The notes under the pieces: generated by a model | The model's input: only the letters and a program-made list of their open reading frames with translations | What the model was told of the DNA's origin: nothing | Database searches by the model: none | Translations under genes and position numbers: made by a program | Source: Eggerthellaceae bacterium | Lineage (GTDB): Bacteria; Actinomycetota; Coriobacteriia; Coriobacteriales; Eggerthellaceae | Direction: 5' to 3' | Length of the DNA: 64,000 nt | Assembly (NCBI GenBank): GCA_009782605.1 | Contig: WRIR01000012.1 | Coordinates: forward strand, 183-64,182 | In this document: positions 5,536 through 55,333 of the stretch, one piece after another | How the letters are laid out: every line of letters starts with the position of its first letter | Numbering within the stretch: position 1 is the first letter of the stretch

Positions 5536-5841
5536 GTGGTGCACATCCCCTAGCCATGCGGTTTACATCGGTCGCATCGGTTCCATCATCCATCCGAATA
5601 TTTCCATTATATCACCATATCAGGGGATTTCCCGAAGGTTACCAAAAGGTAAGGGTATCGTCATCGAAAAATTATGTTGTCCATCGGGACCGCCGCAGAG
5701 GTGGAGTATAATAGCCAACGGACCAAAAGTCAGTTTTCAGATTTCCCCTCCATCGGCCGGGCCGCGTCTGAGCCCCCTGGCGCTGGAGGGATTTTGCCGA
5801 GAGGACGGAGCGTCGGGCGCGTGAGCGAGAAGAACCAGGAT

Positions 5842-12336: not shown

Positions 12337-12337
12337 C

Positions 12338-13519: not shown

Positions 13520-13555
13520 TTTTCCCTGTTCTCAAGCCCATAAGGATGTAAAACG

Positions 13556-38865: not shown

Positions 38866-39151
38866 GTCTCCAGCCCAGATCGAGCCCTTGCGCCGTTTCC
38901 AACAGTCGGTCTCATGAGCAAAGAATAGCACAAGGCACCCCGCGCCTCCCACCTCAAGGGAAAAATGGTTTTCAAGTGACTAACATTTTGGAAGGGGCGT
39001 GTTGTTGTACGATTTCCACAGGTGTAAAAACGGATAGGCGGGTCGGATGACCCAAGGGAAAATACCCCGGATTTGCCGATGAAGGACATATTGAAGACAG
39101 GCCGCACTTGAGGCTCCTCGCACAGGTCTCAGGTGTTTTGTCGGAGCAGGG

Positions 39152-40216
39152 ATGAGCCCAAACATGCAAATAAGCGGCATCGAGAAGGCTATAGGCAGGA
39201 AAATCAGGCTCACCGCCGTCTATTGTCGGCGCATCCTCCTTGCAAAGAACCATCAAAAGTGCCCGTGGTACAAGAAGCTGAAGGCAAACCTGTCCGGGGG
39301 CTTTCTGGCCGACCAGTGGATCCTGTACGACTTGGACCACAACGACAGGAGGGAATACCTGTCCGAATACGACTGGTACCGCTCCCGCTACATAAACGAG
39401 CCCTTCAGCTTTTTGCTGAACAACAAGATAATCGCCTCGGAAATGCTGAAGCAGCATATCCGGGTCCCGGAGAACTACGTGATAAAGAACGGGGACTTCC
39501 TCGTGGACCTCAAAGGCGGGATGCTTGGGTATAATGAGGCGATCGAAGTGCTTAAGGCCAAAGGGCAGGTTTTCATAAAGCCGTTCGACAAAGGAAAGGG
39601 CACCGACATCAACCTCCTTTCGTATCGCGAGGGGCAGTTCTATGTCGATGCGAGGCCCTGCTCCGACAAGTCCCTGGCAGCCCTTTTGAAAAGCAGGAAG
39701 AACTGGTATATGAGCGAATCCGTGGAACAGAGCGACTATGCCTCAAACCTGTTCGAGAAGACGGCAAACACCATCAGGATCATCACCTTGAGGTCCCCAG
39801 AGACGAAGGAGCTCGTCATTTTCTTCGCAGTCCAAAGGATCGGGACAGAGAAGACCATACCGGTTGACAACGGCAGCCAAGGCGGGCTGATCTCGAAGAT
39901 CGACATCGGGACGGGCGTGCTTTCCGAAGCCCGCTCCCTGCATGGCCTTGCCGCCTACCCGAAGCACCCCGACTCCCACAGTCAGATCGAGGGAGTGGTC
40001 GTTCCCTTTTGGGAGGAGACGAAAAGACAGGTCCTCAGCCTGGCGAACAAGCTCCCCTATATGCATTTTGTCGCCTGGGATATCCTGATGACGCAGAAAG
40101 GGATATGCGTTATCGAGGCGAACACCTCTTCGGGGGTGAACATCATCCAGCTTTGGGGAGGGCAAAGAAACCGGGAGCTCGGTAATTTTTACCGCTTCCA
40201 TAACATTATCAACTAA
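39152..40216 (+). CDS. stand-alone sugar-transfer-associated ATP-grasp (RimK-related amide ligase-like) protein
   Basis: Motifs: FIKP..G..G, NTIRIITL, VDNGSQGGLISKIDIGTG and HFVAWDIL......CVIEANTSSG. These are shared with the other three ATP-grasp modules of the island. Confidence 0.7.
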   Translation: MSPNMQISGIEKAIGRKIRLTAVYCRRILLAKNHQKCPWYKKLKANLSGGFLADQWILYDLDHNDRREYLSEYDWYRSRYINEPFSFLLNNKIIASEMLKQHIRVPENYVIKNGDFLVDLKGGMLGYNEAIEVLKAKGQVFIKPFDKGKGTDINLLSYREGQFYVDARPCSDKSLAALLKSRKNWYMSESVEQSDYASNLFEKTANTIRIITLRSPETKELVIFFAVQRIGTEKTIPVDNGSQGGLISKIDIGTGVLSEARSLHGLAAYPKHPDSHSQIEGVVVPFWEETKRQVLSLANKLPYMHFVAWDILMTQKGICVIEANTSSGVNIIQLWGGQRNRELGNFYRFHNIIN

Positions 40217-40271
40217 CAATAGAGGTCGGCTTTAAAAGCGCATGTCGGATGATACGGATACATGAGGTGAT

Positions 40272-40910
40272 ATGAAGTACATTATTATGGCAGATGGGAA
40301 GAGCGACAGGTGGGACAACTACCTGTCTGTCCCCAAGCATTTCATAGAGATCGACGGGGAGCCCATCATCGAGCGCACGATACGCCTTCTGCACGCCTAT
40401 GACCAGAAAAGCGAGGTCATCGTCACCTCGCACAACAAGGACTATGAGCTTGCGGGCTCCACACGCTACGAGCCCCTTGACAATACCCTGGAAGTGGACA
40501 GGTTCACCCGAGAGCTCATAGTCGACGATACCTGCTTCCTCTACGGCGACACCTACTACACCGAAGACGCGATTCGCCGCATCATACAGACCGAGGCCGA
40601 GGACATCCTCTTTTTTGGGAACAGGGATTCGATCGTGGCTATCAAGATAAAGGACGGCGCCCTTTTCGAGGAGCACGTAGACCGGGTACGGGGCCTTTTC
40701 CTGATCGGGGCGATAGAGCACTGCATCGGATGGCAGGTGTACCAGTCGTTCCAGGGCCTGCCCTTCAACGGGAAGGGAATCGCCGACAAGTACATCCTCT
40801 TCAACGACAAGACCATGGATTTCAACGACCCGGAAGACTATTTGCGAAAAATCGGCAACTTCCCCTTGACAAACCCCGCGTTCCGCAGCATTTATGACCA
40901 GTCGACCTAG
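40272..40910 (+). CDS. NTP-transferase-like (MobA/LicC-type nucleotidyltransferase fold) protein
   Basis: N-terminus KYIIMADGKSDRW....PKHFIEIDGEPIIERTIRLL and DDTCFLYGDTYY. It is paralogous over its full length to residues 1-200 of the next ORF. Confidence 0.55.
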   Translation: MKYIIMADGKSDRWDNYLSVPKHFIEIDGEPIIERTIRLLHAYDQKSEVIVTSHNKDYELAGSTRYEPLDNTLEVDRFTRELIVDDTCFLYGDTYYTEDAIRRIIQTEAEDILFFGNRDSIVAIKIKDGALFEEHVDRVRGLFLIGAIEHCIGWQVYQSFQGLPFNGKGIADKYILFNDKTMDFNDPEDYLRKIGNFPLTNPAFRSIYDQST

Positions 40911-40922
40911 ACGGGGCCGTGC

Positions 40923-43910
40923 ATGGAGTTTGTCATAATATCAGGCGGGAACGGCGGTTTTTGGGAAGCACGTCAGGGCATGCTCGGCCGTCCGGCCAAG
41001 ATCGACGGAGAGACGCTGCTACAAAGGACGGCACGGCTTATCGGGGACTGCAACCCTGGAGGCAGTATCACGGTCGTTGCGGAAAACGACCCGGGCGTGC
41101 CGGAGGGCAGCGCCTTTTACCGCCTGCAGCAAGGCAGCCTGGAGATCGACCGCCTCCCCTATGAGCTGATCGAGGACGATACCTGCTTCCTTTTCGGGGA
41201 TGTCTTCTACACGCGTCCGAGCATGCTCAAGCTCATGGCCATCCCGACAAGCGATGTGGCCTTCTTCGGGTCAAAGGAACAGATCCTCGCCATCAAGGTG
41301 CACGATGCAGAGGCAATGAGGGCGCACGTCGACAGCATAAAAGAACGCTACGCCCAAGGAGAGATAGGCAGCTGCGGCGAATGGCAGCTCTATCAGTCGT
41401 TCACGGACCTTCCTTTTGGGGAGGCTGCCATCGCAGAGAACTACTTCCTGCTGTCCGCGGGTACGCGAAGCATCAGCAGCATTGAGGACTACCAGCAGCT
41501 CAGGAAGGCCCACAAGCGCAAAGCCGCCGCAAGGAAGCGCAGGGCGAGGAAGAAGGGGCGCCGAGACACCATCGAGAGAACCAAGAAGTTTTTATGGAAG
41601 GTACTCTCATTCAAGTTAGTTTTAGAAGGCTTCTCTATACCTCAGGCATTAGAATGGACCCACCGGGTCTATAGCGACCTTAGATGGAACAGGAGTGCGT
41701 CGTTGCGTGCTAAGCTGTGGGCTTACCGTCGTGGTTTTTTACCTGCACAGGTAAAAAGACTCGGGGTTTCAAGGATAGAGGCAGGCGGGCTAATCTCAGA
41801 AAGAGACTATCGTTTCATCATGCCTATTAACGGCATTTACAATAAATGGCTCCACAGCTTTTTTTTGAGAAAATATCTGTTTACTCCTTTCTCCGATTAT
41901 TTTGTTGAATGCTATTACCAAATCGGAAATAGAGACGGTCGACGCCAATTCATTCTCCTGCCTGATTGCCCTCAAGGCTATGGCGAAAATGCTCAAGATG
42001 TTTTGCAGCTTATTAAAGACAAGGGTTCTGTTGTAATAAAAAGGCTATCAGGAAAGAGTTATAAGAAAACCTACCATGTAAGCTATATTGAAAACACCTA
42101 CTTTATGGATGCACGAGAAATAACAGCACAAGATTTGGAAGAGTTTATTTCTCGATGCAAATCAGGAATCCTCCGAATTTTCGAACACCTGGAGTCTTCC
42201 TCTGACCACATATTGAATGTACAACTGATTATTATTAATGAATCAGGAAACGACCCTATTATCAGTGATGCTTTTGTCTTATGCAAACAATTCAAAACTG
42301 CTGTAAATTTTGGAAACTTTGAAAAAAAGGATTCTTTAAGGACAACTCAACTGATTAGAGTTGACGCAGAAACAGGGCGATACTCTTATGAGGGAATAGC
42401 AGAAACCGTCCCCTACTACCAAGAGATTAAAGAACAGGTTCGACGGATATGTCTTTTTGCAGTTACCCTTGAATTCATGGGTATAGCAATTACTATCGCT
42501 GATAACAGTTTCAAAATTACCCGCATGACCGCCAAGCCAGAGTATAAGAATTCATATACTTTCAGCGAATCTTCCACTTCTTATCTCTTGTCAAAGCTGG
42601 AAAAAAAGAATGCGAGTAAAAAAGGATTTATAAAAAAATCGAAGCACATTCGTCGCCAAATTGTATTAAGAATCCGAAGAAGATACACGCGAGCTTTCTT
42701 TCCACCGGGAGTCTACCCTTTTGTAGGAGCACGATGGACTTCACTAATCCTCAGTGACTTATGGATAAACAAAGATGCCACACTGAAAGAAAAACTATGG
42801 GCATACAAAAACGGTTTTCTTTCTTATCGAATCAAGCAATACGGCATTACCAAAGAAAACCGATTGAACTATATATCGGATCTTGAATACTATTGGCTGC
42901 GCCACATCAATAAAAAAGTAAGGATTGTTCTTGAAGACAAGATAACACCTCGTTATATTCTCCGTGACTATAAAGAGTGTTTTCCTGCCTATTACTACTA
43001 CGTTGCCCCTAGGCGCGGGGAAAATCGTATTATGCCTATGATAGATTGCCCAAAAGGGTATTCAGGAAAATATAGCGATGTCTTAAGATTAGTTGCCGAA
43101 AAGGGTGTGCTCGCTCTCAAGCCAGCCCAAGGCTCTCATGGTGACGGCTTCTTCAAATTCTCCTATGAGAACAATAAATACTATCTGAACTCTGAAGAAG
43201 TCAATGAAGAACAAGTTGAAGCTCTCTTCAAAGATGTCGATAATAAATATCTTATCACCGAGTATATTCAAATGCATCCTGAGCTGAAAAAAATATACGA
43301 GGGAGCAGTAAATACCCTTCGAATAGTTGTGTTCAAAAAAGACGGGAAAACGCCCGAAATCGGCAATGCATATATGCGCATTGGATCCAGCAAAACCGGG
43401 ACAGTAGACAATATGAGTGCCGGCGGCATGTACGCACAAATTGATACCGACACCGGACGCTACCACAAAGCCAAGAGCATCGAGAACAACCAAATCCTGC
43501 CATGCGAGTATCACCCTGATACGGGAGTAAAAATCGAAGGCTACCTCCCTAATTGGAATCTAACAAAACAGCTGGTTCTCGATATAGCACAAAAAATGCC
43601 ATTTCTTGAATATTTTGGATTTGATGTTGCGATAACCGAAAATGGTATTAAACTTCCTGAAATCAATAGATTCCCCGACTATCCAAAAATTGAAACACTC
43701 TCTGAAAACACCATTGATTATCTCCTCTACAAGCTGGAGCAAAAAAAATTGCGAGTTCACTATAATAAGAAAAGGTCAATAAGGTTGTTCAATTTGCCCA
43801 AAAGACCATTCACAGAGGAAGAACCGGGAACCGACTATTTGTACGAACAAGAACATGAGAATCTCAATGAACTTGAAGAATACCCGGAAGGCCACGAATA
43901 CTCTATATAG
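40923..43910 (+). CDS. tri-module fusion: NTP-transferase-like domain + K/R-rich linker + two tandem sugar-transfer-associated ATP-grasp modules
   Basis: Residues 1-200 parallel ORF 40272. The linker reads KAHKRKAAARKRRARKKGRR. Both modules open with RWNRSASLRAKLWAYRRGF / LWINKDATLKEKLWAYKNGF. Only the second keeps VDNMSAGGMYAQIDTDTG and FGFDVAIT.NGIKLPEIN. Confidence 0.7.
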   Translation: MEFVIISGGNGGFWEARQGMLGRPAKIDGETLLQRTARLIGDCNPGGSITVVAENDPGVPEGSAFYRLQQGSLEIDRLPYELIEDDTCFLFGDVFYTRPSMLKLMAIPTSDVAFFGSKEQILAIKVHDAEAMRAHVDSIKERYAQGEIGSCGEWQLYQSFTDLPFGEAAIAENYFLLSAGTRSISSIEDYQQLRKAHKRKAAARKRRARKKGRRDTIERTKKFLWKVLSFKLVLEGFSIPQALEWTHRVYSDLRWNRSASLRAKLWAYRRGFLPAQVKRLGVSRIEAGGLISERDYRFIMPINGIYNKWLHSFFLRKYLFTPFSDYFVECYYQIGNRDGRRQFILLPDCPQGYGENAQDVLQLIKDKGSVVIKRLSGKSYKKTYHVSYIENTYFMDAREITAQDLEEFISRCKSGILRIFEHLESSSDHILNVQLIIINESGNDPIISDAFVLCKQFKTAVNFGNFEKKDSLRTTQLIRVDAETGRYSYEGIAETVPYYQEIKEQVRRICLFAVTLEFMGIAITIADNSFKITRMTAKPEYKNSYTFSESSTSYLLSKLEKKNASKKGFIKKSKHIRRQIVLRIRRRYTRAFFPPGVYPFVGARWTSLILSDLWINKDATLKEKLWAYKNGFLSYRIKQYGITKENRLNYISDLEYYWLRHINKKVRIVLEDKITPRYILRDYKECFPAYYYYVAPRRGENRIMPMIDCPKGYSGKYSDVLRLVAEKGVLALKPAQGSHGDGFFKFSYENNKYYLNSEEVNEEQVEALFKDVDNKYLITEYIQMHPELKKIYEGAVNTLRIVVFKKDGKTPEIGNAYMRIGSSKTGTVDNMSAGGMYAQIDTDTGRYHKAKSIENNQILPCEYHPDTGVKIEGYLPNWNLTKQLVLDIAQKMPFLEYFGFDVAITENGIKLPEINRFPDYPKIETLSENTIDYLLYKLEQKKLRVHYNKKRSIRLFNLPKRPFTEEEPGTDYLYEQEHENLNELEEYPEGHEYSI

Positions 43911-43924
43911 TACTATGCGTCGAA

Positions 43925-46375
43925 ATGGGGGATTTGAAATTGAAAAAGAGGTTTGGGAAAACTAAAGACTACAAATATATTCTAAGTGGTCGTAACGCAG
44001 AAATCACAGAGTATCTTGGTTCAGAAACGGTAGTAAACATACCGGAAACTTTAAACAACTCTATTGTGGCCGCAATAGGTGAACGAGCTTTTTACAATAA
44101 TGAAAGTGTTACAAAAGTTTTTATACCGGCTTCTGTAAGTGCTTTGAGAAAGGAAGCTTTTTCATGTTGTAAAAATTTAATTAAGATCAATATAGACAAC
44201 GGGCTTTCCACTATTTCCTCTTTTTGTTTTTCGAATTGCAGCGCTTTAGACGCAATTATATTGCCAAAATCAGTTACTACTATTTATCGAGGAGCCTTTC
44301 GTAACTGCGTCGCACTCAAAGAAATTGAAATCCCCGAAGGGATTACTGTTTTAAGCGCAGAGTTGTTTTATGGTTGTGAGCGATTGGAGCAAGTTGGACT
44401 GCCTTATGGACTAGAGCGAATATACTCAGGTGCTTTTCAGAATTGTTCGAAGCTTCATACTTTTTACCACTATGGTAAAAGAAATATCAACTCTATAATG
44501 GTTATTGATAAGAACCTCAAAGAGTATGAATTCCCAACACGAATTACCCATATTGGCAACAGCGCATTTGAAGATTGCATTTCTTTATCCCAAGCAAGAA
44601 TTCCCCATAGAGTCAGCATTATTGGTGAAGGAACTTTCAAGAATTGTAAAGCTTTGACTACTGTTTATACACATAATCTATTGAGAGAAATTAAAAACGA
44701 GGCATTTTATGGTTGTGAAAATTTGAAGGTAATTAAGCTTCCTGTTTTTACTAGAAAAATAGGGCGAAATGCGTTCAATAGCCTCACTTGTATCCATTGT
44801 GAAAAAGCAGCCTTCGCTGCAACTTATGCTTCTCGCAATTATCTATCATGCCGTTATATTGAAGAATCAGCACCGTCTCTTTTCAGTCATATGATTCCCG
44901 CACAAAGCAAACGGGCAAAACTGAATAACCATCCTCTGTTCTATACAGAACAAGACCTTCGAGAATGCCAAGAAAAATTCGAAATGCGTCCCCCTTCCTA
45001 TAAAAAATCAGAAAAATCCTTTCGAACAGCAGAAGCAATAGAATCTTCCCGATTCGACTATGCAAATGGCATGTATACCAACAAAAATAGATCACAAAAA
45101 AGTAGAGCAGTTATTATGATGGCGGGAGGCCTGCTTTGTGGAGCCCGACATCAGGAGACATCTTTTGATAGCGGCAAATATTTTTTTGATACGAACTTCC
45201 TCCTTATAAAGGATCTTTTGAAACAGTCTGACTTTGCCATAGCAACGCTCGAATCCATGGTGTCTCCTTCTGCTCCTCTAACTGCTGAAGTTGAGTATGT
45301 TAACACCGCAAAACATCACAATGCTCCGGAATCATACTTAGGTGCAATTAGAAAAGCTTCGTTCGATGCAGTGATAAACGCCCAAAACCATGCGTACGAT
45401 ACTGGTGTTCAAGGCATTTTTGAAACACTCGATATGCAAAATAGATATCAACTGATGCATACCGGTGTTTTTGCCAGCACAGAGGATAAGCGATACCTTT
45501 TCCTTGAAATAAATGGCATTCGCATAGCTTGCTTGTCTTACCTTGATAGCGCAAAAGGGAGATTAAAGAAAGTGAATTTTAGCAGAATCGGACGAGAAAC
45601 CCTCCTTAATTATCTCAACAGTGACGAAGCAGAAAAAACACAAATAGGTCAAGATGTTGCAAATGCAAAGGCCGAAGGCGCAGAATTTATCATTGCTTTC
45701 TGTCATTGGGGAAAAGAGTATTCCCAGCAATTAACCGAGCGCCAGCTGCTCTTTAGCCAACAGGTCGCAGATGCTGGGGTTGATTACATTTTTGGTTCTC
45801 ATTCGCATTGCGTTCAACCTTACGATGTCATTACAGCAAGTGATGGTCGTCGAGTTCCGGTTTATTATTCGGCAGGAAGCCTAATATCGGATATCAGTGT
45901 GCGGCTTCCTATCACACGAGATGCCCTTATTGGTGAGCTGATATTGAAGAGAGACGAAGACGGACAAGTAACTATTGAACGTGAAGGATATTATCCTTGC
46001 AGAGTCGTGAATCTTGAAGAAGATGAGATAAACTACATGGTTGTTCCTACAGCCATGCAATTTGAAGAACGCACGCTCAGAAACAAACGCTTGGCTGATG
46101 CTGAGGGGCGAATAAAAAGAGCAGTAGGAACCAAGATAAACGAAAGAATCCCCCAGGAGATTCCTTTACTAATTAGCGAGCTAGCAATCCACAAAACCCC
46201 TGAATCCGAATTCGACATTGCAGAGGTAGCAAAACTTTTAGATGTCGAGTTTATAAAGAATAACGCCAACACAAAACTTAGCAACCTCACATACAGGATT
46301 AATAGTATAGACGAACACTCCGTTTTTGTTGGACTTCGCATAAAAGAACAAGAGCTCGATAGCACTAGTTCCTAG
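43925..46375 (+). CDS. BspA-type leucine-rich-repeat (LRR_5) + CapA/PGA_cap metallophosphatase-like fusion protein, no signal peptide
   Basis: The LRR units are of the type IGERAFYN...LRKEAFSCCKNL...ISSFCFSNCSAL...IYRGAFRNCVAL. The CapA blocks are ATLESMV, INAQNHAYD, AFCHWGKEY and FGSHSHCVQP. Confidence 0.75.
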   Translation: MGDLKLKKRFGKTKDYKYILSGRNAEITEYLGSETVVNIPETLNNSIVAAIGERAFYNNESVTKVFIPASVSALRKEAFSCCKNLIKINIDNGLSTISSFCFSNCSALDAIILPKSVTTIYRGAFRNCVALKEIEIPEGITVLSAELFYGCERLEQVGLPYGLERIYSGAFQNCSKLHTFYHYGKRNINSIMVIDKNLKEYEFPTRITHIGNSAFEDCISLSQARIPHRVSIIGEGTFKNCKALTTVYTHNLLREIKNEAFYGCENLKVIKLPVFTRKIGRNAFNSLTCIHCEKAAFAATYASRNYLSCRYIEESAPSLFSHMIPAQSKRAKLNNHPLFYTEQDLRECQEKFEMRPPSYKKSEKSFRTAEAIESSRFDYANGMYTNKNRSQKSRAVIMMAGGLLCGARHQETSFDSGKYFFDTNFLLIKDLLKQSDFAIATLESMVSPSAPLTAEVEYVNTAKHHNAPESYLGAIRKASFDAVINAQNHAYDTGVQGIFETLDMQNRYQLMHTGVFASTEDKRYLFLEINGIRIACLSYLDSAKGRLKKVNFSRIGRETLLNYLNSDEAEKTQIGQDVANAKAEGAEFIIAFCHWGKEYSQQLTERQLLFSQQVADAGVDYIFGSHSHCVQPYDVITASDGRRVPVYYSAGSLISDISVRLPITRDALIGELILKRDEDGQVTIEREGYYPCRVVNLEEDEINYMVVPTAMQFEERTLRNKRLADAEGRIKRAVGTKINERIPQEIPLLISELAIHKTPESEFDIAEVAKLLDVEFIKNNANTKLSNLTYRINSIDEHSVFVGLRIKEQELDSTSS

Positions 46376-46380
46376 AATCA

Positions 46381-46405
46381 AAGTAATCAACACAGCTGAT
46401 TACTT
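46381..46405 (+). terminator. AT-rich 9-bp hairpin between the two LRR-CapA paralogues (weak terminator/processing site candidate)
   Basis: aagtaatca (46381-46389) pairs with tgattactt (46397-46405) across a 7-nt loop. There is no strong T-run. Confidence 0.3.
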
Positions 46406-46458
46406 TAAGAGAGGGCAGTCAAGGAAAACAATTGTGGAACACAAGGGAGCGGCAGAGT

Positions 46459-49400: not shown

Positions 49401-50013
49401 CGGTGGTCACAATTCCGGTATTTTTGAATCGAACGACAATGATATACAACTGCTTCAGAAATGCAAAAAGGAGAAACTGATTGTTGAAGAAATTGTTAGG
49501 CAACACGAAAGTTTGGCTGCATTTAATAAAAGTACCTTAAACACAATAAGAATATATACTTTGCTAACAGCCAATAATGAGGCTATTGTAATGCTCGCCG
49601 GAGCTCGTTTTGGAAGAGCAAGTGCTGTAGTTGACAATTTTCATAGCGGCGGTCTAACGGCTGGTGTTGATATTCTTACGGGCATGGTTGTCACTGACGC
49701 CATAAATAGAGACCATGTTCGATACTCCGTACATCCAGATTCTTTATTGGAATTTCGAGGGTTTCAGGTTCCTTGCTGGAATCAGGCAATAGAGACTGTA
49801 AAAGAATCGGCGAAACAGATGCCCCATGTTAGACATGTAGGATGGGATGTCGCCATAACTAATCAAAATGAAATCGAACTTATCGAAGGAAATTCATTAC
49901 CAAACTTTGATATTACGCAAGCAGTAGATCAGATTGGGAAGAAGTACCTTTATGAAGAACATATTAACGAACTGGAAGCTGTTGCAAAGAAGAAAGACTC
50001 GAAAAGAAAGTAG
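46459..50013 (+). CDS. BspA-type LRR + CapA/PGA_cap + sugar-transfer-associated ATP-grasp triple fusion protein
   Basis: AAGGGAG lies 9 nt before ATG 46459; the track ORF opens with TTG at 46432. The LRR and CapA parts look about 60-70% identical by eye to ORF 43925. The C-terminal ATP-grasp has FFGKPILGSGG, NTIRIYTL, VDNFHSGGLTAGVDILTG and VGWDVAITNQNEIELIEGNS. Confidence 0.75.
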   Translation: MTGTNHEARSRTEQELGDKKLGVVKETENYRFTVLGHSAEILEYVGSKTCVDIPEILGDCTVTSIGERAFYNTAIIKVTTPDSVVALGKEAFSCCRNLVEININTSLTTISSFCFSSCSALKKVTLPESLTTLHEAAFYNCSNLEEVEIPRGIAVLNAELFFGCEKLKQIGLPHNLNRICSEVFKNCSNLENFYYCSIPTTKHIMMSANQKKRTYELPDHISHIGKNAFENCASLRKIRIPYKVSIINEGVFKNCTVLAKVHVHSSLKEIKNEAFYGCENLEEIKLPGFTKKIGDNVFSRKTEILCEGEDFGAIYAAQNALPCRYIVKTTPPLSSHMIPSQNEQVNLSDCTSFYTEEDLRKCVEKFEMRPPSYEYIQRSNMAVEEEIASSRFVYKEGKYINKNRTAEGRATIMMTGDLMALPRYQGFSSKADRYIFDSSFHFVKDILQQSDFAIGNLESLVAPSAPLMIETEYVDGVLHLNAPESYLRAIKEASFDAVINAQNHIYDAGVRGIFETLDMQNKYQLMHTGAFVGNEDKRYLMLEINGIRIACVSYFDLARQPTRSVNFTNIGKQTLFSLLGIQETVLQQITQDIEDAKAEGAEFIIAFCHWGKEYTNELTDRQILFSKTIAKAGANYIFGSHPHCVQPYDVITTDDGRSVPVFYSAGNFMSDSSAWSSVSRDTIIGELVLRKDESKGVYIESSGYYPCKIMNLEKDSFTYTVIPTAMKFEGSPAKNKYLSDAEIKIEKNIGAKIKKLIPQGIVLTVIKKSQAKGDSEAYHKTKHLKTGDDSLVFTIEELCYLLKIELPKQYQENSSFFVTQTSLFNRLENKEKLLREIKETEDYCYHHYEEIKANAAQFKNHYCGVGNTRKTETELLEMFVEWIYIFRPLGFYPDDYFNYELYDKTITEANEFISGEYRRKIAKVCRNNSYLKYFLNKVFFLKTFSRYVKRDYLDTTSCTLSEFKAFTEKNPQFFGKPILGSGGHNSGIFESNDNDIQLLQKCKKEKLIVEEIVRQHESLAAFNKSTLNTIRIYTLLTANNEAIVMLAGARFGRASAVVDNFHSGGLTAGVDILTGMVVTDAINRDHVRYSVHPDSLLEFRGFQVPCWNQAIETVKESAKQMPHVRHVGWDVAITNQNEIELIEGNSLPNFDITQAVDQIGKKYLYEEHINELEAVAKKKDSKRK

Positions 50014-50203
50014 TGTACAAATAAAGACGCCGCCCTAAAATCGAGCGATATTGTTCTCAAAGATGATACAATTCTTGCTAAAGTTCCATGGAATGAGTTT
50101 TATTGAAATCATCTGCTTTTTGGAAAAGCCATAAAGAACCCACGCTTATCTCCCGTTGGTTATCTAAATACATGTAATTACTAAAAGATAAGAAATCTGG
50201 AAA

Positions 50204-50293
50204 ATGTTTAAAAATAATGAACCTGACTTTGATATTGAAGCAATTGCCGAATTGCTCAATACTCGACTAGGGGGTTTGATAAGAAAGGCTTGA
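50204..50293 (+). CDS. 29-codon ORFlet abutting the next gene (possible gene remnant)
   Basis: MFKNNEPDFDIEAIAELLNTRLGGLIRKA*. Its TGA (50291-50293) is immediately followed by the ATG ATG of ORF 50294. No SD is seen. Confidence 0.15.
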   Translation: MFKNNEPDFDIEAIAELLNTRLGGLIRKA

Positions 50294-52750
50294 ATGATGC
50301 GTGATTTTATACACCAAGGTGAAATCAGCATACGCTACATACTTCGCAAAGCTGCCGCGCCTTCCGATATTCTTGTCGTCACGTTTCCCGGTGCACATGG
50401 ATGGCGGGAAAATGCCATGCCGCATTTGGGGTATGCCTATTTGAACGCCATTGCTTCCTTCAATGTCAACGGACTCTTTCTTAAGGGAGGCATTGAAGAA
50501 GAGGCGAGCACCCTTGGGCGCATGGTCTGTGTTAATCGCGATTTCAAGGTTGAACGTACAGTAGTCGAGCTCATCAACAGAGCAAAAGAGGAAACCGGCA
50601 GTACCCGCGTTATTGCTATTGGTTCAAGTATGGGCGGATGGTGCAGCGCATACTATGGGCTGAAGTATGGGTATGATGTTATCTCGGGTTCACCAGCGTA
50701 TGAGTTCAAAAGCGATCAAAGCGTGGAATTCGTTGCAGGGGGCACCAGTGAGGAAGATTATGGGTTTTGTAACTCCCTTATGCCCAATGTCATAAAGAAT
50801 GCGGGAGCGGACGGCTACGACAAGTTTTTTTTCATCTCGTGGGGAGAGGGCGAGGGGAACTGGGTACGAAAGGAGCATGGCCCCCAATTTCTTGCAGCTT
50901 TAGATGAGGCGAGCATTAAATACAAGCATAAGCTGCATAGCTTCTCTTCTCACTGGGCTGTTCATTGGTTATTTCCAGATGTCTTAACTCGACAGCTTTC
51001 AGCCGCACTTGGACTACCGGTAAGCGAAGAACAAGAGGCGTTAACGGATTTACAAAAAGCAAGCACAGAGATTAAAAAAATGAAAGAAACCCTCAAAGCG
51101 GAAATTGACGCTCTTGATGGGTCCGCGCCGAACTACAGCAATGCTTACATTGTAGGCTATGGCAGTAATAGCCGCGACATACAGCTCCGTACCTTCGTTT
51201 ATGGAGCGCAGGGATATCATTGGTGGCGAAGAGGGGAGGGGCAAGAGAAAGCCTACAATATTGGTCCTCTTGACGTATTCTGGGGATCAGCCACCGTCAT
51301 AAACGAGGACTATGCTACATCTTTTTGGTTTCATCAGACACTGCTTAATTTCTATAAAACCGAAGGAAACCAAGATGCGTGGGAGCTGCTCGATAAAAGT
51401 ACACGCCAGTTTTTCTACCAAGTTGATGCGGTTGCGAAAGTGGCGAAGACATATAACAGTTGGTGGACGGCAGTACGCCGGATGCATTTCTTCCTTGATT
51501 GGGCGAATGTGCTTGATGGCCATAACGTGCCGGACGGCATTACTGCCCAAGTAACCGATACGCTCAATATCCTCCTCGATATACAGCTGGCCATAAACTT
51601 CAATGCGACGAATCAATATCGTGTCCTTCTTGCCTTGACTCATGCAACACAGTATTTCCGGAACAGTGCAGCTTTTTTTGAAAAAGCATCCATGGCGGAG
51701 CTTCATGGTTTTGCGGCATTGAATAGCTATTACTTTGACAAGAATGGGATATGTGTGTTTCAGCAAGTGCGTGCCCAACACGCACTGCGCACACAGGTTA
51801 ACGTGCTTATCGAGTTCATAGTCGGGAATGAGTTTTCTCATGACCCAATAATGAAGAAAATCAAACGGCATGCAGAGAAAATTGAAAACGCGACCAGGCA
51901 CCTCATACGTCCCAACGGGCAAATACCGAATCTTGGACATACTGTCGGGGGGAAAACCAAGCTGGCACGTTCAGGTGGAAACCTCATCTTGCCGACATCC
52001 AATCTGGCAATACTCGATGAAGAGGGAACATACATCACCATCAACAGCGGCAACCCGTGCCATTCGGCGTACAAGCATTGCGACTTGCTCTCGTTCACGT
52101 TCTTCTATGATGGGCGCCTGCTTGTTGCAGATGCGGGCGGCGGTGTCGGCGCACTTGCGGATTTTTCGTGCTCCGCGATAGCGCACTCAGCGTTGATCTG
52201 CGACGACAGCGATTACGTCATTCCTGAGTACAGCGATTTCACCACAATCGATGCGGTTTCAGAACATGAGGACTATGTCTTGCTCGGGATGTCGCACCGG
52301 CTGTATCCGGATGTGGAGCTGCGCCGTGCCTTTTTGTGGCTCAAGCCGAATATCGTGATCCTGCTTGACTCTGCCGAGTCCGGCACAGAACATGCCTACG
52401 TGCAGAACTTCTTGCTCGAAAAGGATGCCCAGCAATTCCTGTCGATCACGCAACAGGGCAACAGCTGCGACCTCGAAACCTTCACTGGCACAACGGATGC
52501 CGACGATTACGAGCACCTGCGCGGCTCGATTATCTCCAACCTTAAGAAGCCTGCGCGGGCCATGAACCTTGCATACACGCAGAAGGGCACGTCGGCAAGC
52601 TATGTGACCGTGCTTGAGGCCCACAGCGGCAAAGAGGGTGAGATCGCCATCAAGTCTGTGCAGGTTGACGGTGGAAATGTTAAGATAACGCCCGTCAAGG
52701 GCAGCACAAAAGTAATCCCCCTTGATGTCGAGGCGGGTCAGTTGATATGA
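50294..52750 (+). CDS. alpha/beta-hydrolase-like N-terminal domain fused to heparinase II/III-like (alpha/alpha toroid + beta-sandwich) domain
   Basis: N-terminus ILVVTFPGAHGW...VIAIGSSMGGWCSAYYGLKYG (GxSxG nucleophile elbow, reminiscent of Asp2). C-terminus HSAYKHCDLLSFTFFYDGRLLVADAGG......AHSALICDD, typical of heparinase II/III family proteins. Confidence 0.6.
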   Translation: MMRDFIHQGEISIRYILRKAAAPSDILVVTFPGAHGWRENAMPHLGYAYLNAIASFNVNGLFLKGGIEEEASTLGRMVCVNRDFKVERTVVELINRAKEETGSTRVIAIGSSMGGWCSAYYGLKYGYDVISGSPAYEFKSDQSVEFVAGGTSEEDYGFCNSLMPNVIKNAGADGYDKFFFISWGEGEGNWVRKEHGPQFLAALDEASIKYKHKLHSFSSHWAVHWLFPDVLTRQLSAALGLPVSEEQEALTDLQKASTEIKKMKETLKAEIDALDGSAPNYSNAYIVGYGSNSRDIQLRTFVYGAQGYHWWRRGEGQEKAYNIGPLDVFWGSATVINEDYATSFWFHQTLLNFYKTEGNQDAWELLDKSTRQFFYQVDAVAKVAKTYNSWWTAVRRMHFFLDWANVLDGHNVPDGITAQVTDTLNILLDIQLAINFNATNQYRVLLALTHATQYFRNSAAFFEKASMAELHGFAALNSYYFDKNGICVFQQVRAQHALRTQVNVLIEFIVGNEFSHDPIMKKIKRHAEKIENATRHLIRPNGQIPNLGHTVGGKTKLARSGGNLILPTSNLAILDEEGTYITINSGNPCHSAYKHCDLLSFTFFYDGRLLVADAGGGVGALADFSCSAIAHSALICDDSDYVIPEYSDFTTIDAVSEHEDYVLLGMSHRLYPDVELRRAFLWLKPNIVILLDSAESGTEHAYVQNFLLEKDAQQFLSITQQGNSCDLETFTGTTDADDYEHLRGSIISNLKKPARAMNLAYTQKGTSASYVTVLEAHSGKEGEIAIKSVQVDGGNVKITPVKGSTKVIPLDVEAGQLI

Positions 52751-52765
52751 AGCGAGGCAAGGTAG

Positions 52766-53584
52766 ATGCTCTACAAGGTCAGTGTTAACCAATCCATCCT
52801 CGATTTGTTGTCCGTTCGGCATGTCTTGATGCTGAGCAGCAGGTATCATCGCGACATCAGCATCAAGATCGGGGATACGGTGGTCTTTGCAGACGACCTT
52901 GAGGTATACCCCTATACCACGTTCATGGCGGGAAATGCGCTCTTCAGCATGGGCTCTTTCAGTTACTCGCGCTCAGAGCTCGGCGGGGACGCGGGCAGGA
53001 ACAACGTGCAGCAGGTCCAGGTCGGGCGCTACTGCTCGATAGCCGACAACGTGCGGGTCTTCCAAGGCAACCACCGCATGGACGCATACACTACCAGCAG
53101 CTTCATTTACGCATTCCCCGGCTTCCGGCACGAGACGTGGCATGTCAGGGAAAGGGCGAAGGAAAAAGGGATCGAAAGGCCGGCTGCCCTCGCATTGGGG
53201 GATGACGATGTTTGCCAGACCGTAAGAATCGGCAACGATGTCTGGATCGGCTCCCATGTGGCATTGAAGCCGGGCATACGCATCGGCGACGGTTCCTGCA
53301 TCGGCACGGGGGCGCTTGTTACCAAGGATGTGCCGCCCTATGCGATAGTTGCAGGCGTGCCCGCCAAGGTTGTCAAGTACCGTTTCGATGACAGCGTGAT
53401 AGAGCAGCTGCTCGCGCTCAGGTGGTGGGACTACGACTTTTTAGACTTCGCCGTGCACCCCGAAGAGCCGATAGACGCTTTTATCAAGGCAGTGAAAGAG
53501 CAGGTAGAGAGCAACAAGATACTGCCGTACAGCTCGGACCCGATACGGGCAAAGGACATACTGGGATTAAGGAGTGGCACATAA
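52766..53584 (+). CDS. hexapeptide-repeat acyltransferase of the xenobiotic acyltransferase (XAT; Vat/CatB-like) class
   Basis: Motifs: GNHRMDAYTTSSF, VRIGNDVWIGSHVALKPGIRIGDGSCIGTGALVTKDVPPYAIVAGVPAKVVKYRF and LLALRWWDY. Confidence 0.8.
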   Translation: MLYKVSVNQSILDLLSVRHVLMLSSRYHRDISIKIGDTVVFADDLEVYPYTTFMAGNALFSMGSFSYSRSELGGDAGRNNVQQVQVGRYCSIADNVRVFQGNHRMDAYTTSSFIYAFPGFRHETWHVRERAKEKGIERPAALALGDDDVCQTVRIGNDVWIGSHVALKPGIRIGDGSCIGTGALVTKDVPPYAIVAGVPAKVVKYRFDDSVIEQLLALRWWDYDFLDFAVHPEEPIDAFIKAVKEQVESNKILPYSSDPIRAKDILGLRSGT

Positions 53585-53817
53585 TGGAACAGCAGTTCAT
53601 TGACCTTCTGAACAAGGTAAACGAAGAGATCTTCGACAACCCCGATGCCGATCTCGTCGAGGATGGCGTTATAGACAGCCTCGACATCATGAACCTCGTT
53701 GCCGGGCTGGAGCAGGTCTTCGGGGTTGACTTCGACCCGGACGACATAATACCGGAGAACTTCGCATCCCCCGAAGCCCTGTGGGGGCTCGTCCAGCGCT
53801 ACCAGGCAGAGAGGTGA
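53584..53817 (+). CDS. D-alanyl-carrier-protein-like (DltC-like) aminoacyl carrier protein
   Basis: 77 aa. The ATG overlaps the preceding TAA (TAATG). The Ser attachment context is EDGVIDSLDIMNLVAGLEQVFGV, and length and layout match DltC. Confidence 0.75.
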   Translation: MEQQFIDLLNKVNEEIFDNPDADLVEDGVIDSLDIMNLVAGLEQVFGVDFDPDDIIPENFASPEALWGLVQRYQAER

Positions 53818-53821
53818 CAGT

Positions 53822-55333
53822 ATGCCGGTGCTGAAGTCCGTGACGCAGTGGCTTGATGCCACGGCAGAGAGGCTGCCCGACAAGGTCGCGTTCGGCGAGG
53901 ACAAGGCAGGGACGTTGACCTTTGCGCAGCTGCGCGGCGCTTCGCGTGCAACGGGCACGTTCTTGGCGAAACGGGGAATAAACAAGCAGCCGGTTCTGGT
54001 TGCCCTGGGTAAGACTCCGCAGTGCGTAGCGGCGATGCTCGGGGCAGCATATGCCAACTGCCCGTATACGCCGCTGGATGTTGACATGCCGCCAGGGCGC
54101 ATCCGCAAGGTTATCGACACCCTGCAACCGGCCGCCTGTATCACGGATGCCAAGCACGAGCAGCTGATGCTTGAAAGTGGGTTGGCGCAGGACAGCATCC
54201 TGCTCTACGAGTGCGTATCGAACACCCCCATAGACGAAGATGCTTTGGCAGACGTCCATGAAAGGCGTATCAGCACAGACTTGCTGTACATCCCTTTCAC
54301 CAGCGGCTCTACGGGTGCGCCGAAAGGCGTTGCGGTAAGCAACGGCAACGTGATCGACTACACGCCCCAGGCTGCCGAGAAGTTCGGCTTTAACGATGAG
54401 ACGGTTTTCGGGCAAAGCGTGCCTTTTGTTTTCGACGGCTCTATACTCTACGTCTACCAGACGCTGCTGAACGGCTGCACGGATTGGATAATCTCGAAAG
54501 TCGACCTGATGTTCGCTGCAAAGACGGTGGACTTCCTTAACAGGCACCGGTGCAACACGGTTTACATGATGCCGACCCTCTACAGCATAATTGCGAAAAG
54601 CGGCATATTGAACAAATCCAAGCCTGAGTATCTGCAAAAGTGCCTATTCGTGGGAGAGGTGATGCCCAATAGCGTGTTGAACATATGGCGGCGAGCATTG
54701 CCGAAGGCGACATTTGCGAACCTGTTCGGGCCCACGGAGGCAACAACCTTTTTATGCTATGTCGTCGACCGCGACTTCACCGACGAAGAGCCTTTGCCTA
54801 TCGGGACGCCGTATGAAAACAACGAAGTCTTGCTATTGGACGAGAACGGCACCGAGACGAAACGCGGCGAGGTGGGCGAGATGTGCGTTAGGGGGGCAAA
54901 AGTGACGCAGGGGTACTACAACGACCCCGAAAGGTCGGCCGCAGTGTTCGTGCAGAACCCCTTGAACAGGGCATACCGCGAGACAATCTACAGGACAGGC
55001 GACTTTGCATACCTCAATGAGCAGGGCGAGTACATGTTCATGGGGCGCAAGGACTTCCAGGTAAAGCTCGCGGGGCACCGTATCGAGCTCGGGGAGGTCG
55101 AAGTTCAGGCAATGGCAATGCCTGGGGTGGAGCTCTGCGCCTGCGTGCTCGATGAGGAGGCACAAAGACTTGTGTTGTTCTATGTCGGAGAGGCCGGGCA
55201 AAAGGAGCTGAGGGACGAACTGAAGCGCAAGCTGCAGGGCTATATGGTTCCCGCGCAGATAACGTCGATCGATGCCATGCCCAGGACAGGCAGCGGCAAG
55301 ATAGACAGGATCGCTTTGAAAGAGGCCCTTTGA
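53822..55333 (+). CDS. DltA-like amino acid--carrier protein ligase (adenylate-forming enzyme)
   Basis: 503 aa. Motifs: LLYIPFTSGSTGAPKGV, FGPTE, YRTGD, GRKDFQVKLAGHRIELGEVE and PRTGSGKIDR. Confidence 0.8.
   Translation: MPVLKSVTQWLDATAERLPDKVAFGEDKAGTLTFAQLRGASRATGTFLAKRGINKQPVLVALGKTPQCVAAMLGAAYANCPYTPLDVDMPPGRIRKVIDTLQPAACITDAKHEQLMLESGLAQDSILLYECVSNTPIDEDALADVHERRISTDLLYIPFTSGSTGAPKGVAVSNGNVIDYTPQAAEKFGFNDETVFGQSVPFVFDGSILYVYQTLLNGCTDWIISKVDLMFAAKTVDFLNRHRCNTVYMMPTLYSIIAKSGILNKSKPEYLQKCLFVGEVMPNSVLNIWRRALPKATFANLFGPTEATTFLCYVVDRDFTDEEPLPIGTPYENNEVLLLDENGTETKRGEVGEMCVRGAKVTQGYYNDPERSAAVFVQNPLNRAYRETIYRTGDFAYLNEQGEYMFMGRKDFQVKLAGHRIELGEVEVQAMAMPGVELCACVLDEEAQRLVLFYVGEAGQKELRDELKRKLQGYMVPAQITSIDAMPRTGSGKIDRIALKEAL

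Follow-up and report, generated by a model that had tools for sequence, protein, structure and literature searches.

A TagF-centred locus of an Eggerthellaceae bacterium, predicted to build a teichoic-acid-type polymer with cytoplasmic amino-acid decoration

A 64,000-nucleotide stretch of the Eggerthellaceae bacterium assembly GCA_009782605.1 (contig WRIR01000012.1, positions 183 to 64,182; called the window below) carries a 17.7-kb block that consists of nine co-directional open reading frames (ORFs) on the + strand at 39152-55333 and a divergent TagF-like gene. With a probability of about 0.6, the TagF-like gene and the nine-gene block are one locus making a teichoic-acid-type anionic polymer, which would be assembled on a lipid carrier and decorated in the cytoplasm with amino acids or a short peptide. 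Rather than an orphan, the locus is an elaborate representative of a family of TagF-centred loci that is conserved and uncharacterised. A preliminary description of this DNA, made from the letters alone, had pictured the nine ORFs as nearly contiguous, which is correct, as gaps are small throughout the block except at 50014-50293 (280 bp). The block is not put together ad hoc: it is one composite of two recurrent modules that are seen in other loci, the first with the TagF-like gene, O1, O2 and further ligases and the second with O6, an acyltransferase, a carrier protein and an adenylation-domain (A-domain) enzyme.

Core genes and related loci

The features of the block are as follows (aa, amino acids; GC, guanine plus cytosine content; NTP, nucleoside triphosphate).

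37621..38865, - strand: TagF-like CDP-alditol phosphotransferase, 414 aa from the ATG called by JGI; the longest ORF extends to 38952
38866..39151: intergenic region between the TagF-like gene and O1, 286 bp, GC 0.53, presumed bidirectional promoter
39152..40216, + strand: O1, stand-alone ATPgrasp_ST ligase (amide or ester), 354 aa
40272..40910, + strand: O2, nucleotidyltransferase-fold protein, 212 aa
40923..43910, + strand: O3, three-part protein, 995 aa
40923..41522, + strand: O3N (O3 aa 1-200), O2 paralogue without the NTP-binding residues, followed by a Lys/Arg-rich linker
41598..42677, + strand: O3a (O3 aa 226-585), degenerate ATP-grasp module
42678..43910, + strand: O3b (O3 aa 586-995), ATPgrasp_ST module with intact motifs
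43925..46375, + strand: O4, LRR_5 (BspA-type) and PGA_cap protein, 816 aa, PGA_cap at aa 397-656
46459..50013, + strand: O5, fusion of LRR_5, PGA_cap and ATPgrasp_ST, 1184 aa (ATG 46459)
50294..52750, + strand: O6, alpha/beta-hydrolase (aa about 1-240) with a heparinase III/PL12-like toroid and a beta-sandwich, 818 aa
52766..53584, + strand: O7, XAT-class hexapeptide-repeat acyltransferase, 272 aa, its stop codon overlapping the start of the carrier-protein gene
53584..53817, + strand: PP-binding carrier protein, 77 aa
53822..55333, + strand: O8, stand-alone amino-acid adenylation enzyme, 503 aa

The TagF-like gene, earlier taken as merely adjacent, is the core of the system and not a mere neighbour, since 19 of the 22 related loci have it together with O1 and O2 and since it is joined to O1 in P0261, a single-polypeptide Glyphos_transf-ATPgrasp_ST fusion; one metagenome locus also has such a fusion. 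These 22 loci are the ones of at least 6 kb, annotated against a reference set, among 38 loci obtained by scanning metagenome contigs with an O1 alignment. Their components are distributed as follows.

O1 and O2 adjacent, 22 loci; TagF-like gene, 19; TagH, 12; TagG, 11
O3-type double ATP-grasp protein, 10 loci; LRR fusions, 9; MurF-like, 8; Ddl, 4; PGA_cap, 3

The TagF-like protein matches Pfam Glyphos_transf (PF04464) with an E-value of 2.5e-44 and 152.1 bits against a cutoff of 22.1, covering positions 9-366 of the 367 in the profile, and by this Pfam assignment it supplies the phosphotransferase of a teichoic-acid-type locus. Its NCBIfam matches to TarL, TarB and TarF all lie far under the cutoffs. 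O1 belongs to ATPgrasp_ST (PF14397, E 5.6e-35, 121 bits against 31.4) and keeps the K-P, VDN..GG and E-x-N motifs. Its orthologues are 45-70% identical across the 38 metagenome loci, the family comprises 7099 representative clusters at E<=1e-3 and 435 at E<=1e-30, and a PDB sequence search with O1 returned chance matches only.

Both NTP-transferase-like modules of the preliminary description are real, with the restriction that O2 scores below the cutoffs and that O3N is a degenerate paralogue of it. For O2, Pfam NTP_transf_3 and IspD reach 26 and 25 bits, just under the 27-bit cutoff, and the NCBIfam models also stay under theirs. The motif IIMADGKxxRW..PKH is conserved through 901 homologues. 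The AlphaFold2 (AF2) model of O2, with a predicted local distance difference test (pLDDT) score of 86.5, has as its nearest folds CTP:inositol-1-P cytidylyltransferase (IPCT), LicC, PntC, MurU and IspD, and based on this model O2 is probably an alcohol-phosphate cytidylyltransferase making a CDP donor.

The related loci range in GC from 24% to 53%. The closest relative is a locus of the Eggerthellaceae metagenome-assembled genome GCA_009782615.1 (isolate Nt197P3bin53; L002/L010), which is syntenic with 61-91% protein identity. There the TagF-like gene lies inside the operon, between the O2 and O3 orthologues, and the cluster is flanked by TagG/TagH-like ABC exporter genes. Exporter genes of this type also stand beside the cluster in L004, L053 and L056, a WecA/TagO-like GT4 is present in L004 (GT4 matches occur in 2 of the 22 loci), and an LCP wall ligase is encoded in the Firmicutes-type loci L056 and L057. 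The minimal operon of the Firmicutes type consists of six genes (TagF-like, O1, O2, ABC2_membrane, ABC_tran and LytR_cpsA_psr) and lies near sporulation (SpoVA) genes. Since the sister loci have TagG/TagH, a WecA/TagO-like GT4 and LCP, the system is to be placed in the ABC-transporter-dependent pathway of the teichoic-acid type; the earlier statement that the block matches no known teichoic-acid gene set is right for the window and not for its relatives.

Other partners found in sister loci are MurF-like-LRR_5 fusions, Ddl, TagF-like genes and ABC exporters, and the LRR-PGA_cap sister loci have PGA_cap fused to a MurF-like or an ATP-grasp ligase; a RimK-type PGA_cap fusion (P0008) comes from the protein search only. 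The MurF-like protein P0001 passes the murF subfamily model TIGR01143 with 301 bits against a cutoff of 288.6.

Some further genes were observed in or beside these loci. L002 encodes two fusions that are absent from the window, PGA_cap with a GDSL lipase/esterase and an opposite-strand ATPgrasp_ST + LRR_5 protein (L002:20058-21878 and L002:12264-13796, both on the - strand); the ATP-grasp domain that is fused to the end of O5 in the window is thus a separate ATPgrasp_ST + LRR_5 protein in L002. A cytoplasmic family of about 460-500 aa without Pfam match occurs in MurF-like/LRR loci (L004:15101-16597; L006:9232-10653 and 12958-14352), shares N-termini such as 'KNGKSRLSA' and is absent from the window. 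An unannotated 493-aa protein follows TagH at L053:14472-15953. Just upstream of their loci, L004 has KilA-N and Bro-N domain proteins (L004:519-2680) and L053 a faint DDE transposase match (L053:5000-6853); such mobile-element-type genes hint at a route by which the TagF/O1/O2 module moves between genomes. Directly after the ligase cluster of L006 (L006:14440-15807) lie VTC and DUF4956 genes, families linked to polyphosphate, which may connect this locus with phosphate supply.

Ligase, PGA_cap and carrier-protein modules

Four ATP-grasp modules had been described and all four are real. Three of them, O1, O3b and the C-terminal module of O5 (O5c), have intact catalytic motifs; O3a is degenerate and was undetected by Pfam. 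Within O3, the O3b match to PF14397 spans aa 719-920 (E 1.1e-38, 133 bits against 31.4), and that of O5c spans aa 938-1169 in the numbering of a 1193-aa form of O5 (E 2.2e-45, 155 bits against 31.4). O3a is homologous to O3b (BLASTP E 3e-38), has no VDN..GG loop and carries 'KITRMTA' in place of the E-x-N metal site, a degeneracy also kept in its orthologues (A1 consensus), and its sequence points to a probable pseudo-ligase. O3N, with a GC content at third codon positions (GC3) of 0.71-0.76, is 33% identical to O2 and looks catalytically degenerate, as it reads 'IISGGNGGFW..GRPAK' in place of the family's 'IMADGKGTRW..IPKH'. The closest NCBIfam match of the ATP-grasp modules is a RimK-related alpha-L-glutamate ligase model. 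The ATPgrasp_ST and TupA-like families were reportedly defined in the 2009 amidoligase paper of Iyer et al. A scan of the genome collection with O3 found two species genomes, an undercount because it relied on two short peptide patterns. Two starts are possible for O5: TTG 46432 opens the longest ORF and gives the 1193-aa form, the JGI call and the collection use ATG 46459, and an exact-protein look-up of the TTG-start form returned no match.

Both LRR_5 and both PGA_cap domains, the hydrolase-heparinase fusion and the XAT acyltransferase of the preliminary description were recovered by Pfam and NCBIfam. In O4, LRR_5 is matched with E 1.8e-53 and PGA_cap with E 3.5e-49. O5 is 55% identical to O4 and is matched by LRR_5 with E 2.6e-54 and by PGA_cap with E 1.3e-53 (aa 420-680, 1193-aa numbering), its ATP-grasp motifs being present. 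The only PDB sequence match of the PGA_cap domains is MslH, with 31-35 bits against a 700-bit cutoff for the MslH model NF038314. According to PMC10406935, where its mechanism is described, MslH is a Ca-dependent epimerase of peptide C-termini. O5 retains the equivalents of the MslH dyads His88/Asp91 and His295/Asp11 as well as of Glu44 and Asn87, the mapping of His259 and His261 being uncertain. O4 has Gly at the position of MslH Asp11 ('MMAGGL'), where all other family members have Asp, and its PGA_cap is possibly catalytically degenerate. In B. subtilis, poly-glutamate has a D/L ratio of 5/95 without pgsA and of 75/25 with it (PMC6029982). In addition, PGA_cap is variously fused to ATP-grasp, MurF-like and RimK-type ligases, three unrelated types that extend a C-terminus. 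Given the MslH match, the dyads of O5, the effect of pgsA on the D/L ratio and these fusions, the PGA_cap domains may epimerise a newly added C-terminal residue.

LRR domains are a recurrent part of PGA_cap, MurF-like and ATP-grasp proteins, and they must be cytoplasmic since the fused ligases need ATP. A 19-residue hydropathy scan revealed no transmembrane helix or signal peptide in any protein of the block, in agreement with the preliminary description. With this result and a chemistry that needs ATP, all of these proteins look cytoplasmic.

A further CapA/PGA_cap protein is encoded among the housekeeping genes at 4288-5544 on the - strand (GC3 0.86, Pfam E 4e-59). With a hydrophobic anchor at its N-terminus, it resembles the classical membrane form, unlike the cytoplasmic copies of the block, and no PgsB or PgsC gene adjoins it.

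Judged by its sequences and gene order, the set of O6, O7, carrier protein and O8 is a separable acyl decoration module, predicted to depend on the carrier protein, that is also found in unrelated capsule loci. Homologues of O6 are rare (19 proteins) and occur in two unrelated polymer loci, where they are followed by an acyltransferase (of a different family in each locus), a 78-aa protein and an AMP-binding enzyme. Polysialyltransferase-like and CMP-transferase genes accompany them in one of these loci, and a 754-aa TagF-like gene, GT8 and pyruvyltransferases in the other.

In O6 itself, Pfam detects Hepar_II_III_C (E 1.9e-11), and the alpha/beta-hydrolase match is weak. The nucleophile elbow GSSMG (G110-S111-S112-M113-G114) and H220 are invariant in 16 homologues. 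The AF2 model (pLDDT 84.3) matches HepC/heparinase III in Foldseek with E 1e-17, and the structural matches of its N-terminal domain are esterases and CsaC of N. meningitidis (6yuo), on which it superposes with a template modelling score of 0.70, normalised to target length. According to PMC7501274, CsaC of serogroup A is a cytoplasmic O-acetyltransferase of the alpha/beta-hydrolase fold with a Ser nucleophile, acting on a phosphate-containing capsule polymer. Unlike CsaC, to which it is only 17-18% identical, O6 has an extra heparinase III-like domain of about 580 aa. The genetic tie of O6 to a carrier protein and an adenylation enzyme suggests that its donor is an aminoacyl- or acyl-S-carrier and not acetyl-CoA.

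The three genes downstream of O6 are among the best conserved, with 82-91% identity to their L002 orthologues (86% for O7, 91% for the carrier protein). O7 is matched by Pfam Hexapep and by NCBIfam Vat, CatB and phn_thr-fam (E 1e-27 to 2e-32, all under cutoffs). The carrier protein is matched by Pfam PP-binding with E 3.5e-7 and reaches 32 bits with NCBIfam DltC, against a 68-bit cutoff. O8 is matched by Pfam AMP-binding with E 7e-66, gives 314 bits with TIGR01733 (cutoff 317.4) and 267-269 bits with the DltA models (cutoffs 476 and 560), and finds its best PDB matches among the A domains of non-ribosomal peptide synthetases (NRPS; LgrA, 322 bits), above DltA (172-185 bits). Thus, of the DltC/DltA-like pair proposed earlier, the PP-binding and AMP-binding families are confirmed and the Dlt assignment is not, O8 being nearer to NRPS A domains. 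The sequence of O8 shows the motifs FDGS (Asp235) and GKIDR (Lys517). Its pocket residues look uncharged, and as positions 278, 299 and 301 are mapped uncertainly, no substrate call was drawn. No condensation or thioesterase domain of an NRPS assembly line was found in the locus with Pfam and NCBIfam. In L002, the A-domain gene overlaps at its end with a gene for an amino-acid racemase. This racemase hints at a D-amino acid in the O8 module, but it scores below the cutoff of the CuyB model and passes only a generic amino-acid racemase model.

Proposed product and alternatives

In the pathway proposed for the teichoic-acid-type polymer, O2 would make a CDP-activated alcohol-phosphate donor, from which the TagF-like enzyme, assigned by family and with a presumed substrate, would add an alcohol-phosphate unit to the growing chain. 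O1 would activate a carboxylate as acyl-phosphate and join an amino acid to the unit or to the polymer by an amide or ester bond, and O3b and the ATP-grasp domain of O5 might attach further residues. As in MslH, the new C-terminal residue may be turned to the D-form by the PGA_cap of O5 and perhaps also by that of O4. Non-catalytic docking or substrate holding in a multi-enzyme complex might be the role of the LRR domains and of the degenerate parts (O3N, O3a and possibly the O4 PGA_cap). In the second module, O8 would adenylate an amino acid and load the 77-aa carrier protein, O6 would grip the polyanion via its lyase-fold domain and transfer the aminoacyl group through Ser112 of its Ser-His hydrolase domain, and O7 might transfer, cap or further acylate this group together with O6. 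Export, priming and wall attachment would have to be encoded elsewhere in the genome, since related loci have the genes for these steps beside the cluster and the window does not. Beyond the family assignments and the gene linkage, we infer these steps. The preliminary description had already suggested a cytoplasmic decoration of a polymer with amino acids through several chemistries; the ATP-grasp ligases and the adenylation/carrier pair beside a polymer phosphotransferase support it, with the restriction that some modules are degenerate.

The gene set is not described in the literature that was searched on ATPgrasp_ST and on teichoic acid, ATP-grasp and TagF; PMC4000134, which deals with a metallopeptidase-like protein of modified-polysaccharide operons, has no relation to it. 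When compared to the wall teichoic acid pathway of B. subtilis and S. aureus, the window likewise has a Glyphos_transf (TagF-family) enzyme together with a small cytidylyltransferase-fold enzyme, the assembly steps are all cytoplasmic, and the sister loci add the TagG/TagH-like exporters, the WecA/TagO-like GT4 and the LCP ligase. The differences are that the window is without TagA, TagB, TagD, TagG, TagH and LCP, that O2 is not TagD or TarI, and that the obligatory ATP-grasp partner and the LRR, PGA_cap and MurF-type ligases have no classical counterpart.

Several points weigh against a decorated teichoic-acid-type product. No member of the locus family has a known product, and we infer every substrate. 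The NCBIfam equivalogs (TarL/TarB/TarF, DltA/DltC and MslH) all score far under their cutoffs, O2 falls just short of its Pfam gathering score, and an Asp that is essential in MslH is absent from O4. PGA_cap, with its metallophosphoesterase fold, could be a phosphoesterase, e.g. on a phosphodiester polymer, and the usual binding partners of LRR domains are proteins, in keeping with a protein substrate. Finally, there is no TagG/TagH-type exporter in the 64-kb window (the only tblastn match was to a generic ABC ATPase at 16.1 kb that is 25% identical), and no TagO/WecA priming enzyme, LCP wall ligase or racemase either; therefore, the locus may be incomplete or reliant on genes beyond view.

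One alternative is that the ligases make a free poly-amino acid or a small peptide metabolite, independent of the TagF product and merely sharing its operon. PgsB is a Mur-ligase-type enzyme, and cyanophycin and dipeptides are products of ATP-grasp enzymes. The PGA_cap family is that of PgsA/CapA, with fusions to Mur-ligase domains in relatives. As in PgsBCA/CapBCA and MslH, the PGA_cap domains show Glu, Asn-His-x-x-Asp and His motifs and are paired with an amide ligase; unlike in PgsBCA/CapBCA, those of the block are cytoplasmic, LRR-fused and without membrane anchor. However, the window has neither a Mur-ligase (PgsB) nor a PgsC gene of a PgsBCA/CapBCA system, the Mur-ligase domains in the fusions are of the MurF-like type (as given above for TIGR01143), and the only export genes of the related loci are polymer-type ABC2 transporters. 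A free product also sits poorly with the strict adjacency of O1 and O2, their usual linkage to TagF and the TagF-O1 fusion, and we consider it improbable.

In another explanation, which is quite improbable, O3, O4, O5 and perhaps O1 modify the C-terminus of a protein or ribosomal peptide in the manner of RimK, tubulin-tyrosine-ligase-like enzymes and MslH, with the LRR domains for recognition and with a wall-associated protein as the link to TagF. The RimK-related model nearest to the ATP-grasp modules, the action of MslH on a peptide C-terminus and the typically protein-binding nature of LRR_5 would all agree with it. However, the loci hold no conserved candidate substrate gene, P0261 fuses O1 to a TagF-like phosphotransferase, and the minimal operon has only TagF, O1, O2, TagGH and LCP. 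Moreover, sister loci use MurF-like and Ddl enzymes, that is, non-ribosomal peptide-stem chemistry. MurF and Ddl build the peptidoglycan stem, and the window encodes neither; the MurF-like domains of the sister loci differ from that system in being fused to LRR_5 and PGA_cap and in lying in TagF/TagGH operons, not in the dcw cluster. The presence of Ddl with MurF-like ligases implies the addition of a C-terminal D-Ala-D-Ala-type dipeptide in those sister loci.

A third explanation, very improbable, sees in O1 a Dlt-independent cytoplasmic aminoacylation of alditol-phosphate hydroxyls by esters, without amide or peptide, and in the extra modules redundant or strain-specific variants for single residues. 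Ddl/VanA-type ATP-grasp ligases can form esters, as the D-Ala-D-lactate ligases do, and the minimal operon has a single ligase. The block resembles the Dlt system in a stand-alone adenylation enzyme and a small carrier protein in a teichoic-acid context, and no DltB (MBOAT) or DltD-like protein of a Dlt operon is found among the window ORFs, with the DltA and DltC equivalog cutoffs missed as well. Unlike in Dlt, the partners are a cytoplasmic XAT acyltransferase and a fusion of alpha/beta-hydrolase and lyase folds, and the L002 orthologue is coupled to a racemase of the Asp/Glu type, not to an alanine racemase. Against the ester explanation, the MurF-like, Ddl and terminal-residue epimerase-like domains of the sister loci imply peptide chains with free C-termini, and the characterised sister family, that of the C-terminal domain of Cj1438 (Cj1438C), forms amides on a polymer carboxylate. 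As described in PMC11800379, this TupA-like domain of C. jejuni Cj1438 amidates glucuronate in the HS:2 capsule, and it is a precedent for the ligation onto a polymer that is proposed for O1 in the preferred reading. Cj1438 shares with the present locus an ATP-grasp ligase fused to or beside a polymerising transferase of surface-polymer assembly, and it forms its amide in the cytoplasm; it differs in its Pfam family (TupA-like, not ATPgrasp_ST) and in having a glycosyltransferase as partner in place of a TagF-like enzyme, and no glucuronate-forming genes are present in the window.

Within the preferred reading of a decorated teichoic-acid-type polymer, a more specific version is speculative and on balance doubtful. 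The product would be a 'peptido-teichoic acid', a TagF-type polymer bearing a non-ribosomal peptide that is made by stand-alone ATP-grasp and MurF-type ligases without NRPS, with PGA_cap epimerases paired to the ligases, a scaffold of LRR domains and pseudo-enzymes, and chains that end in D-Ala-D-Ala in the sister loci.

Compositional mosaic and wider meaning

The GC content is 0.63 outside the block. Inside, it is about 0.54 at 39-41.6 kb, falls to 0.30-0.47 per 200 bp (mean about 0.38) at 41.8-50.3 kb, and then climbs to about 0.47-0.49 at 50.4-52.0 kb and finally to about 0.56 at 52-55.3 kb; the GC3 of the housekeeping genes in the window is 0.82-0.87. The hand counts of the preliminary description were thus about right, and windowed GC agrees with a Bernoulli change-point analysis on the third codon positions of the ORFs of the block, in which three GC3 steps far exceed chance. 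The segments and junctions are as follows.

39154-41588: GC3 0.77
41591: junction 1, GC3 0.77 to 0.35, log-likelihood gain 212, at about aa 223 of O3 in the linker between O3N and O3a
41591-49986: GC3 0.35
49989: junction 2, GC3 0.35 to 0.49, log-likelihood gain 21, at the 3' end of O5
49989-52030: GC3 0.49
52033: junction 3, GC3 0.49 to 0.74, log-likelihood gain 150, at about aa 580 of O6 on the toroid/beta-sandwich boundary
52033-55330: GC3 0.74

Junction 3 coincides with a secondary-structure boundary of the O6 AF2 model, and at junction 1 the identity to the L002 orthologue shifts from 36-53% upstream to 59-88% downstream. The host-like outer parts hold the most conserved proteins (the TagF-like protein, O1, O2 and O3N on one side; the C-terminal part of O6, O7, the carrier protein and O8 on the other). 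Of the lateral assembly proposed earlier, what remains is the middle of the block, 8.4 kb from O3a to O5, and the next 2.0 kb with an intermediate composition, both of which look recently imported; the outer parts, with GC3 of 0.74-0.77, are near the host. No near-identical donor of the low-GC core was found, its best relatives having 54-74% protein identity. As junctions 1 and 3 fall on domain boundaries within O3 and O6, the low-GC core fits a cassette replacement by homologous recombination within conserved genes of a resident locus. The two imported parts would derive from lower-GC donors and would have entered as in serotype-cassette switching. Cassette replacement in surface-polymer loci is well known. 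For the wall teichoic acid genes of B. subtilis, cassette transfer is the stated subject of PMC8753576.

An integrative island was rejected as an explanation, given that the window has no tRNA, that the outer block is near the host in GC3 and that the junctions are intragenic. No recombinase family surfaced in the scans of flank and block proteins; direct repeats at the borders were not searched for.

The mosaic is extremely unlikely to be an assembly chimera of two co-occurring organisms with homologous clusters, even with a window taken from a metagenome-assembled contig and with junctions inside genes conserved among relatives, because a JGI and a MEGAHIT contig (the latter from ENA) are identical to the window over 33925-56375 and 38923-45910, respectively, across the junctions that each covers, the O3 protein spanning junction 1 is present on six contigs, all reading frames are intact, and GC3 changes by 0.4 across the O3 junction, which leaves no long shared k-mers to mislead an assembler.

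The non-coding gap between O5 and O6 at 50014-50293 (GC 0.35), the sole sizeable one of the operon, coincides with junction 2 and may contain an internal promoter or a recombination scar. A consensus promoter scan of the region between the TagF-like gene and O1 gave nothing exceeding chance, promoter- and terminator-like sites around the locus were not clearly enriched relative to shuffled sequence, and an Rfam scan around the locus revealed no riboswitch and no leader RNA.

The flanks are of housekeeping character, with LigA, aconitase, PheT, arginine biosynthesis, two penicillin-binding proteins, a U32 peptidase, TyrS and a molybdopterin oxidoreductase. As the preliminary description had it, no glycosyltransferase, polymer exporter, integrase or transposase was found among the window proteins examined (flanks and block), and a tRNA scan of the 64 kb was also negative. 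Three other features of the flanks can be mentioned. A class-III aminotransferase (ArgD-like, 709 aa) follows argB at 23666-25795 on the + strand, with an Ala/Asp/Val-rich low-complexity insert of about 300 residues (aa about 100-400) that splits its Aminotran_3 domain. Between the aconitase gene and pheT, a 682-aa ORF without Pfam match (10534-12582, - strand), whose GC3 of 0.60 is unusually low for this genome, may be spurious or a lineage-specific gene. At 63828-64000 on the + strand lies the 5' end of a bacterial small-subunit rRNA gene (Rfam RF00177, 133 bits), cut by the end of the window.

Teichoic acids and other anionic wall polymers of this kind govern the shape of the cell, its ion balance, its susceptibility to phages and antibiotics and its recognition by the host. 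With 901 O2 homologues and the O2-family variant P0149 listed in 300 blocks of the contig collection, the uncharacterised wall polymer proposed here may therefore be common in these communities. The intragenic compositional junctions show that such loci diversify via cassette swaps at domain boundaries. In addition, the LRR-PGA_cap-ligase fusions offer a soluble, tractable test of CapA/PgsA-family domains as possible peptide epimerases, a question that bears on poly-gamma-glutamate synthesis. If a 'peptido-teichoic acid' is indeed made, this would be direct support for PgsA/CapA proteins being peptide epimerases in general; the D-Ala-D-Ala ends in sister loci with Ddl and MurF-like ligases could then let penicillin-binding proteins cross-link the exported polymer into peptidoglycan, or the polymer could alternatively be a decoy for glycopeptide antibiotics. 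To our knowledge, the decoration of teichoic acids with amino acids has so far been credited to the extracellular Dlt system. If the reading of the locus is true, a cytoplasmic ATP-grasp route would be a second way of putting amino acids or peptides on such polymers.

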